NCBI GenBank assembly: GCA_039545335.1
Contig: BCIN01000001.1
Coordinates: forward strand, 4,067,347 to 4,131,346
Origin: Kondoa subrosea
Lineage: Eukaryota
Direction: 5' to 3'
Length of the DNA stretch: 64,000 nucleotides
Both the position numbers and the translations under genes were made by a program. Below the pieces are notes generated by a model, which was given only the letters and a program-made list of their open reading frames with translations, made no database searches and was not told where the DNA came from. Below are positions 18,275-19,922 of this stretch, piece by piece; the stretch's first letter is position 1; every line of letters starts with the position of its first letter.

Positions 18275-19922
18275 ATGGCCAAAAGCGTGAAAGGCAAAGA
18301 AGGTTCGCCTGTCGCAGTGCAGTATGACTACTGCACAGATCTAAGACAGTTTCTGCAGTTGCTGCAGCTGAGCCAGAACAGGAGCAGGCGGAAGAAGTTC
18401 AAGAAAAATCAAAGAATAAAAAACATCGAAAGGATAAGCGTGAGCTGCTTATTGGAGGATGTAGTCATACGGTACTCATTCTCTGTCACTCCCAGCATGG
18501 GACACGGATGACATTGATCAGTAAGTTCTCCTTGTCTTCTCACTCGAATGACAAGCTGAAATTGAGCTCAGCGTATGTTCAGATTAGCAGTCACATGGAC
18601 AGCTCTAACGCATGGCCGACTAGTGGAAGATTGATGCCTTCGAAGCTCCAGCTACCGCAGACGATCACAAACCTTTCTTAGAAGAATCTTCCTTCGTTAC
18701 TCTCTTTCCCAAGTATCGTGAAATCTATCTGCGTGAGATCTGGGGCGCTGTTACTGCTGCTTTGGACAAACATGTAGGTGTTCGAGCTTTTTCATTGCCT
18801 GCGGTAATTGAAGAAGCTGTGTCCCTTACAGGGCTTAGCATGTCAACTGGATCTAATTGAAGGTTCTATGCTGGTGAAAACTACTCGTAAAACCTATGAT
18901 CCATATATCCTACTCAAAGCAAGAGATATGCTGAAACTTCTATCTCGTTCTGTACCATTTCAACAAGTAAGCCTGTAAGCCTTGTAATCAGGGTCGCCTG
19001 ATGTACATTGTGTCTTGCACTTACAGGCCGCAAGAATATTGGAAGATGGTGTGGCGTGTGATATTATCAAAATAGGCAATATCATTCGAAACAAAGATCG
19101 GTTCGTGAAACGCCGACAAAGAATCTTAGGTCCTGGCGGTTCTACTCTGAAAGCCATCGAACTCTTGACTCAGTGCTATATTCTTGTCCAAGGCAATACT
19201 GTTTCAGCTATGGGCCCACATCGAAGTTTGAAGGAAGTCAGAAGGATTGTTATTGATTGCATGAAGAACATACACCCGATCTACCACATCAAGGTGAGTC
19301 GTAGCCGTCACTTTTAGATTCAGATCTGATCTTTGATGTCTGCGGGATCACAGGAACTTATGATCAAACGAGAATTAGCTAAAGATCCAAAACTAGCAGA
19401 AGAAGATTGGTCTCGTTTCTTGCCTAAGTTCGGTAAACGCAAGAAGGAACGGAAACAACCTCCTTCTTCTCTGCCTCCCGATCAACCATCATACCGGACC
19501 GAATCAACCAACGCTCAACCTTTACCTCAACAAGACAGTCAATTTGGGAAAGCGAAAGAAAAGAAGAAGGACAAAATCGTCAAGAAACCTTACACGCCTT
19601 TCCCTCCTGCTCAATTACCTAGTAAAGTGGATTTGGAATTGGAAAGTGGTCAATATTTCTTGAAACCCAGGGAAAAGAAGGAGAAGACTATTGAGCAAAG
19701 GAATGCAAAGGTGAGAGCCAAATGAAAACTGTATTGAGACTCGTTGCTCATCCAGTATTTTTGCTTTCGCAGCAAGCTTTAGCGGTCGAGAAAAGGAAAC
19801 AAGATCGAGCGAAGAATTTCGTTGCTCCTGAAGAAGGTGCTGTTACAGAAGAGAAATCAAAGAAGAAGTCGAAGAAGAGCAAGAAGACCACAGAGCAAGC
19901 TAATGCGGATATGTCTGAGTAG
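18275..19922 (+). CDS. KRR1: KH-domain 90S pre-ribosome factor Krr1
   Basis: [97 protein letters not shown] and [20 protein letters not shown]. Confidence 0.96.
18572..18572 (+). other. KRR1: Single-nucleotide exon (C) of KRR1
   Basis: Flanked by two 51-nt introns: 18521-18571 (gtaagt..gctgaa..ctcag) and 18573-18623 (gtatgt..ctaac..actag). It supplies the third base of His (CA|C|TGG). Confidence 0.85.

Follow-up and report, generated by a model that had tools for sequence, protein, structure and literature searches.

Can an essential gene depend on an exon of a single nucleotide? The question is raised by a stretch of 64,000 nucleotides (nt) of Kondoa subrosea (assembly GCA_039545335.1, contig BCIN01000001.1, positions 4,067,347 to 4,131,346), below called the window. 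On its forward strand, at 18275-19922, we model a gene whose nine exons add up to 1194 nt; the frame has 397 codons and is free of internal stop codons. Its eight introns measure 51-62 nt and are all of the GT-AG type. We assign the gene to KRR1 (Krr1/Mis3, a component of the small-subunit processome), as its translation contains both KH domains and the conserved N-terminal stretch K-P-W-D-T-D-D-I-D-x-W and is colinear with Krr1 orthologues over the full length. An earlier reading of the same DNA, the original prediction, had claimed that this gene depends on a one-base exon. The claim is supported by an analysis of the reading frame, by the conserved stretch D-I-D-H-W-K, by the pattern AG/Y/GT in relatives (Y is C or T, slashes mark borders of exons and introns), and by public gene models that deviate at the site. 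We thus consider C18572 to be, with a probability of about 0.88, a genuine and constitutively included one-nucleotide exon of basidiomycete KRR1.

The base lies between two introns of equal length; all features of the gene are on the forward strand. Exon 3 is a microexon of 25 nt (18496-18520) that encodes (P)WDTDDID and ends in ATT GAT CA, where CA are the first two bases of a histidine codon; its motif was found in 70 or more of the 80 related metagenomic loci described below. Intron 3 (18521-18571, 51 nt, phase 2) has the donor GTAAGT and the acceptor CAG, preceded by CT. Two sequences in it are candidate branch sites, taken as such by their likeness to the fungal consensus CTRAY: AATGAC (18547-18552), whose branch A at 18551 is 20 nt before the 3' end, and GCTGAA (18555-18560). 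Exon 4 is the single C at 18572, the third base of the histidine codon. Intron 4 (18573-18623, 51 nt, phase 0) has the donor GTATGT, the branch motif CTAAC (18605-18609, within CTCTAAC), whose branch A at 18608 is 15 nt before the 3' end, and the acceptor TAG at the end of ACTAG. Exon 5 (18624-18773, 150 nt) opens with TGG AAG ATT GAT. All positions and letters given for this site by the original prediction are correct, and the N-terminal stretch KPWDTDDIDxWK that it gives for Krr1 is indeed conserved between our model and the orthologues.

The reading frame needs this base. When 18521-18623 is taken out as one intron, translation confirms the frameshift that had been predicted: with 18520 joined directly to 18624, a premature TAG occurs at 18679-18681. 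Retention of intron 3 reads GAT CAG TAA, again as predicted. When all GT-AG and GC-AG introns of 35 nt or more in the interval 18498-18773 were enumerated exhaustively, no single intron kept the frame, and there were 58 frame-keeping solutions with two introns. Exactly one residue between D-I-D and W-K is obtained in one solution of the 58, namely 18521-18571 together with 18573-18623, whose donors GTAAGT and GTATGT are consensus-like. The claim that D-H-W-K arises by inclusion of the lone C and in no other way is thus borne out. Uninterrupted orthologues (Melampsora, Absidia, Cystobasidium and Microbotryum models and transcriptome-derived proteins) read D-I-D-H-W, and so CA plus C recreates a conserved histidine. 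The predicted mature junction is ATTGATCAC joined to TGGAAG, i.e. GATCAC/TGGAAG. The locus shows the features of a one-nucleotide spliceosomal exon: the base is enclosed by two complete canonical introns, each with GT, a branch motif and AG; its omission breaks the frame and its inclusion restores the conserved histidine; and the architecture is kept in orthologues from other species.

A different splice pattern could account for the same DNA in two ways. One is a microexon of 4 nt, CTCA at 18567-18570, followed by a GC donor at 18571 (GCGTAT), which would give D-H-S-W-K. It is one of the 57 other frame-keeping solutions with two introns, and the existence of these solutions speaks for such a pattern. 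However, they either add residues that are unseen in orthologues or require weak GC donors and introns of 37-47 nt. The other way is a non-canonical intron of 102 nt that leaves CAG (glutamine) and gives D-I-D-Q-W-K, as many public models imply. It is considered below, where the relatives and the public models are compared.

Conservation of the site was analysed in metagenomic contigs, which were scanned with an alignment of exon 5 peptides. The pattern was matched 576 times and 468 relatives were found; the analysis uses the best 80 loci among them. In each locus the exon encoding W-D-T-D-D-I-D and the tryptophan codon were located, and the gap between them was solved. The structure CA/GT..AG/Y/GT..AG/TGG was found in 48 of the 80 loci, so the conservation of AG-N-GT in relatives, a check proposed with the original prediction, is confirmed for these loci. 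One of the 48, L013, is ended by the end of its contig yet shows AG/T/GT. Eleven loci have a single phase-0 intron, CAY/GT..AG/TGG, and 19 have no intron at the site; five of the latter are uninterrupted open reading frames (ORFs) of 378-408 residues from a rust-like fungus and are probably transcripts. The remaining two (L010, L055) are too short to tell. No frame-keeping single intron exists in any of the 46 two-intron loci that were enumerated; L073 and L013 were read by eye instead. The flanking introns of the two-intron loci are 43-103 nt long.

At 90% nucleotide identity, the 47 complete two-intron loci and the window group into 32 clusters. Across the clusters, the introns, compared unaligned, vary widely in length and end motifs. 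In 16 clusters the lone base is C and in the other 16 it is T; A and G never occur. On the Krr1 tree described below, C and T have replaced each other at least seven times. As histidine is encoded with C or T and with no other third base, the lone base behaves as a translated synonymous third codon position. This restriction is therefore strong evidence that the base is present in the messenger RNA (mRNA). The borders on both sides are nearly invariant: the acceptors of both introns are AG in 32 of 32 clusters, the donor of intron 3 is GT in all of them, and the donor of intron 4 is GT in 31 clusters and GC in one. In the latter case (L047, 1385-1500) the downstream intron starts with GCACGT and is of the GC-AG type, and the closest relatives, L044 and L079, have GT. 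A 102-nt intron would leave the internal AG/Y/GT unconstrained, yet all 32 clusters contain it, with C or T at the middle position.

Public gene models bear the traces of this structure. We compared 28 Agaricomycete Krr1 proteins from NCBI (within P0055-P0145) at the site. D-I-D-H-W-K is present in four of them, six have Q instead of H, and the other 18 are disturbed exactly there, by an insertion, by a deletion, by scrambled residues or by truncation of the N-terminus. In total 24 of the 28 deviate, as anticipated by the claim that gene predictors would miss the exon. All eight models from other basidiomycetes compared alongside are continuous across the site. The recurrent glutamine is what would be expected from a 102-nt intron. 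However, it suggests rather that the models were forced over the site by a non-canonical intron end, and the transcript-like sequences read H, not Q: four uninterrupted full-length Agaricomycete ORFs of this type (P0136-P0139) have D-I-D-H-W-K. A genome-derived model from Suillus subluteus (P0140) carries an insertion of eight residues exactly between H and W. It is 94% identical (366/390) to the transcript-like ORF of a close relative (P0138), and these eight residues are the only gap. The insertion ends with S-S, as it would if a pyrimidine tract, an AG and the true one-base exon had been translated in succession. With the evidence on both of its forms considered, a different splice pattern at this site is very unlikely. 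Since 24 of the 28 Agaricomycete KRR1 models are wrong there, the site could serve as a test case for annotation pipelines.

Several points weigh against a one-base exon in KRR1. The evidence for the junction consists of DNA and comparison, from which we infer the mature RNA form in this organism. Pairs from the same species were sought by tblastn, with 29 proteins (uninterrupted complementary DNA-like ORFs and a few annotated models) as queries and the 80 loci together with the gene of the window as targets. The sole pair at 90% identity or more was P0016 with L005, a locus that is intron-free at the site; at this filter no ORF was paired with a locus containing the one-base exon, and thus the support on the RNA level is indirect. 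The 80 loci are the top tblastn matches and not a random sample. A second, simpler copy of KRR1 could exist elsewhere in the genome. Further, the pattern itself is not rare. The 103 nt were shuffled 200,000 times while the outer GT and AG were left in place. An internal AG-N-GT with both halves at least 40 nt long occurred in 14,396 shuffles (7.2%), and one with C or T as the middle base in 7,906 (4.0%). A bare AG-N-GT in one sequence is merely mildly improbable and is not decisive. The arrangement as a whole is far beyond chance, because it is seen again in 31 further clusters of orthologous sequences.

The accuracy of the DNA belongs to the same balance. If the gene were a pseudogene, or if one base had been misread or misassembled, the two-intron structure would be accidental. 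Logan contigs of two DNA runs were compared with positions 18200-19950; there were no differences and no gaps, and the word depths were 144.5 and 56.1. Both runs derive from a single sample, which may be what the assembly itself was made from, and hence they do not constitute independent material, which leaves some room for an error. On the other hand, the contig sets were assembled separately and both match the window exactly, so an assembly indel, which would have undone the original prediction, is unlikely. Besides, the other 396 codons contain no stop, and GT-AG ends are present in all eight introns. Finally, a local error cannot produce the identical architecture in 31 other orthologue clusters. 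We regard a pseudogene or a one-base error as extremely unlikely.

The nearest relatives allow one to compare the site at shorter distances. Three gene calls made on genomic contigs (P0001, P0003, P0007) read through introns, and thus the peptides constrain the underlying DNA by codon compatibility. P0001 is the closest relative, with 92% identity over exon 5. Its peptide is compatible with exactly one full structure, CA/GT..50..AG/N/GT..50..AG/TGG; the second donor may read GTATG, and the lone base is part of an arginine codon of the read-through peptide. P0003 and P0007 are 80-82% identical to the window over exon 5 and allow AG/N/TGG, but not AG/TGG. In P0007 the distance from D to W is 54 nt, which fits a single phase-2 intron of 51 nt. 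Each of the two introns thus also occurs alone: the phase-0 intron in 11 of the 80 loci, and the phase-2 intron in P0003 and P0007. The Krr1 tree hints that the phase-0 position may be older than the phase-2 position: the loci with the phase-0 intron alone (L022, L024-L026, L030, L033, L035, L068, L070, L072, L078) adjoin the two ascomycete references in it.

This tree was constructed by FastTree from 234 reference-anchored core columns of 101 sequences, after 13 sequences with less than 70% cover and seven duplicates had been dropped; Tremellomycetes, Dacrymycetes and Wallemia are not among its references. Every complete metagenomic locus with the one-base exon (47 in number) falls into a clade with 11 named Agaricomycetes. 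The window branches outside this clade, next to Mixia and Cystobasidium-like sequences; the support for this is weak (0.13 and 0.78). A protein atlas gave Basidiomycota as the sole taxonomic label. Its protein also lacks the residues that distinguish Agaricomycete sequences from other basidiomycete models. From this placement it follows that the arrangement either predates the Agaricomycetes or originated twice, both times at the same pair of positions.

How could such an exon arise? Most probably it is what is left where a single base separates two spliceosomal intron positions that are independent of each other. The first position is that of a phase-2 intron between CA and Y of the conserved histidine codon, the second that of a phase-0 intron between the histidine codon and the following tryptophan codon. 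The alternative that one intron was copied from the other in tandem was considered and rejected. Global alignment of introns 3 and 4 gave a score of -1, compared to -0.9 +/- 3.1 for shuffled sequences, and this score was reached by 57% of 2,000 shuffles. No relationship between the two introns is thus detectable, and the exon did not originate by a recent tandem duplication.

Each intron would be removed by means of its own GT donor, branch-like motif and AG acceptor. Their length of 51 nt is usual for this gene (51-62 nt), and introns of about 50 nt would be recognised by intron definition and excised in two separate ordinary reactions. At the donor of intron 4, U1 pairs with about 18570-18578, and this stretch includes the acceptor AG of intron 3 (18570-18571). 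Because of this overlap, two spliceosomes are probably not present at once and the reactions are likely to be successive. Either order would be workable, and the sequence fixes none. After the first reaction, the lone C would be the last base of an exon of 26 nt or the first base of an exon of 151 nt. KRR1 here has two consecutive very short exons, of 25 nt and 1 nt, separated by 51 nt, and after removal of intron 3 the joined exon is still just 26 nt long.

Stwintrons and recursive splice sites (AG/GT ratchet points) also have adjacent 3' and 5' splice sites and are removed in two successive reactions, with no nucleotides kept. The KRR1 locus is similar in that it needs consecutive reactions at side-by-side splice sites. 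It does not belong to this class, however, since joining of 18520 to 18624 shifts the frame and leads to the stop at 18679-18681; one base must stay.

The same skipping product might have a function. The exon may be real and serve as a switch as well, with regulated joining of 18520 to 18624 yielding a frameshifted, decay-prone mRNA that tunes the level of Krr1. The skipped form has four further exon junctions downstream of its stop, and the arrangement is kept in many lineages, both of which would be expected of such a switch. However, slow loss of introns in the intron-rich basidiomycetes explains the retention equally well, and several lineages have lost one or both introns without visible compensation. 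Moreover, the alternative forms described around the one-base exons of the plant VPS55 gene are those of intron retention, not skipping (PMC8831610). We find a regulated switch very unlikely. Another possibility is that the exon is ancient, predating the split between the Agaricomycetes and the lineage of the window, perhaps Pucciniomycotina, by which it would be hundreds of millions of years old, and that it has been kept because two successive splicing reactions couple the output of Krr1, and hence ribosome assembly, to the capacity of the spliceosome, with skipped and half-spliced transcripts being degraded. This would mean that the exon is retained by that coupling and not by inertia. As a whole, this scenario is decidedly unlikely.

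One-base exons as such are a known kind. A one-base exon has been documented in APC11 of Arabidopsis (Guo & Liu 2015, PMC4674806), and those of plant APC11 and VPS55 are reported to be conserved throughout the land plants and to be absent from annotations (Yu et al. 2022, PMC8831610). The KRR1 exon resembles them in several respects: a single base is enclosed by canonical introns in a conserved housekeeping gene over a large clade, it has been lost in some lineages by intron loss, and reference annotations miss it and contain truncated or altered proteins (PMC4674806, PMC8831610). The plant exons were verified by reverse transcription PCR, RNA sequencing and reporter constructs, whereas that of KRR1 has been derived from sequence and comparison. 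Besides the kingdom and the gene, the difference is that the KRR1 introns are about 50 nt long and are probably recognised by intron definition.

In fungi, a one-nucleotide exon of the cytochrome P450 gene CYP621A of Fusarium has been claimed to be the first in a fungal gene (Nelson & Syed 2026, PMC12940212). It is also in a nuclear gene, its single base joins out-of-phase exons inside a conserved motif, and it was found by comparison with intron-free relatives, as in KRR1 (PMC12940212). According to the same source, that base is an invariant G in AG/G/GT, the middle base of a glycine codon, supported by SRA reads, and the exon occurs in 20-24 genes of one ascomycete genus that encode a non-essential P450. 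In KRR1 the base is Y, as a synonymous third codon position leaves it free to vary between C and T, and the exon is found in an essential gene of basidiomycetes, in at least 32 sequence clusters. A long-read annotation of Coprinopsis cinerea contains 13 exons of 1 nt in 13 genes, as well as 57 exons of 2 nt and 27 exons of 3 nt, and omission of such exons often creates premature stops (PMC12230235). Coprinopsis is a basidiomycete, more exactly an Agaricomycete, which shows that spliceosomes of basidiomycetes can handle exons of this size. Unlike the situation in KRR1, cross-species conservation is not given for the Coprinopsis exons, the genes are apparently unnamed in the text of that paper, and its three spreadsheet supplements contain no entries for KRR1 or for the exons (PMC12230235).

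A literature search for KRR1 together with microexons found nothing, and a search for wordings of one-nucleotide exon retrieved plant, Fusarium, Coprinopsis and organellar cases, but none in KRR1. While the kind is already known from plants and fungi, KRR1 is, judging by the sequences compared, a new, unusually widespread and deeply conserved case. An essential, universally conserved gene of ribosome biogenesis would thereby join a very short list, and a fungal one-base exon can apparently stay stable over a whole class. The loci with no intron, with either intron alone and with both constitute a natural series for the study of the origin and splicing of minimal exons.

The rest of the gene is more regular. 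Exon 1 (18275-18302) starts with the proposed ATG at 18275, which is tentative although it opens the frame of 397 codons. Intron 1 (18303-18358, 56 nt, GT-AG) has the weak donor GTTCGC, which makes the start codon and exon 1 less certain than any other part of the model. Exon 2 (18359-18439, 81 nt), with the 3' end CGA AAG GAT AAG C, encodes the stretch K-N-K-K-H-R-K-D-K, in agreement with orthologues, and is followed by intron 2 (18440-18495, 56 nt, GTGAGC...CCCAG). The Krr1 KH1 domain starts in exon 5 (WKIDAF...LDKH), where the first 28 positions of the Pfam profile PF17903 score 23.1 bits, just under the cut-off of 23.4. Intron 5 (18774-18831, 58 nt) separates it from exon 6 (18832-18966, 135 nt), which contains the remainder of the domain (PF17903, E-value 6.1e-17, 62 bits). 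After intron 6 (18967-19026, 60 nt), exon 7 (19027-19293, 267 nt) encodes the second KH domain (PF21800, E-value 3.3e-41, 139.6 bits) and has 5,907 homologues, with 88% as the highest identity. Intron 7 (19294-19353, 60 nt) is followed by exon 8 (19354-19710, 357 nt), which encodes the C-terminal region and was aligned to orthologues, and intron 8 (19711-19772, 62 nt) by exon 9 (19773-19922, 150 nt) with the stop codon TAG at 19920-19922. An Rfam scan of both strands of 16000-22000, with E-values up to 1, gave no matches, and so no RNA family was found in or near the introns.

Elsewhere in the window, positions 25952-26959 on the reverse strand (-) contain a large exon of a mitochondrial-type aconitate hydratase (PF00330, E-value 1.5e-53). 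A search with an aconitase exon reached 81% identity, and 80% for the best named taxon; the matches to it and to exon 7 of KRR1 are scattered over many classes of basidiomycetes. Above this, an environmental protein (P0151) is 95% identical to the exon and is transcript-like, as its 783 residues are encoded on a contig of 2487 nt; a close relative of this organism thus seems to be present in environmental transcript data. Long open frames at 3835-5787 (+), 8272-9801 (-), 41247-42965 (-) and 58723-61346 (-) encode, respectively, Lgl-like, RGS, Gti1/Pac2 and Sin3 domains (the latter with PAH repeats and the Sin3 co-repressor domain), which is ordinary fungal content.

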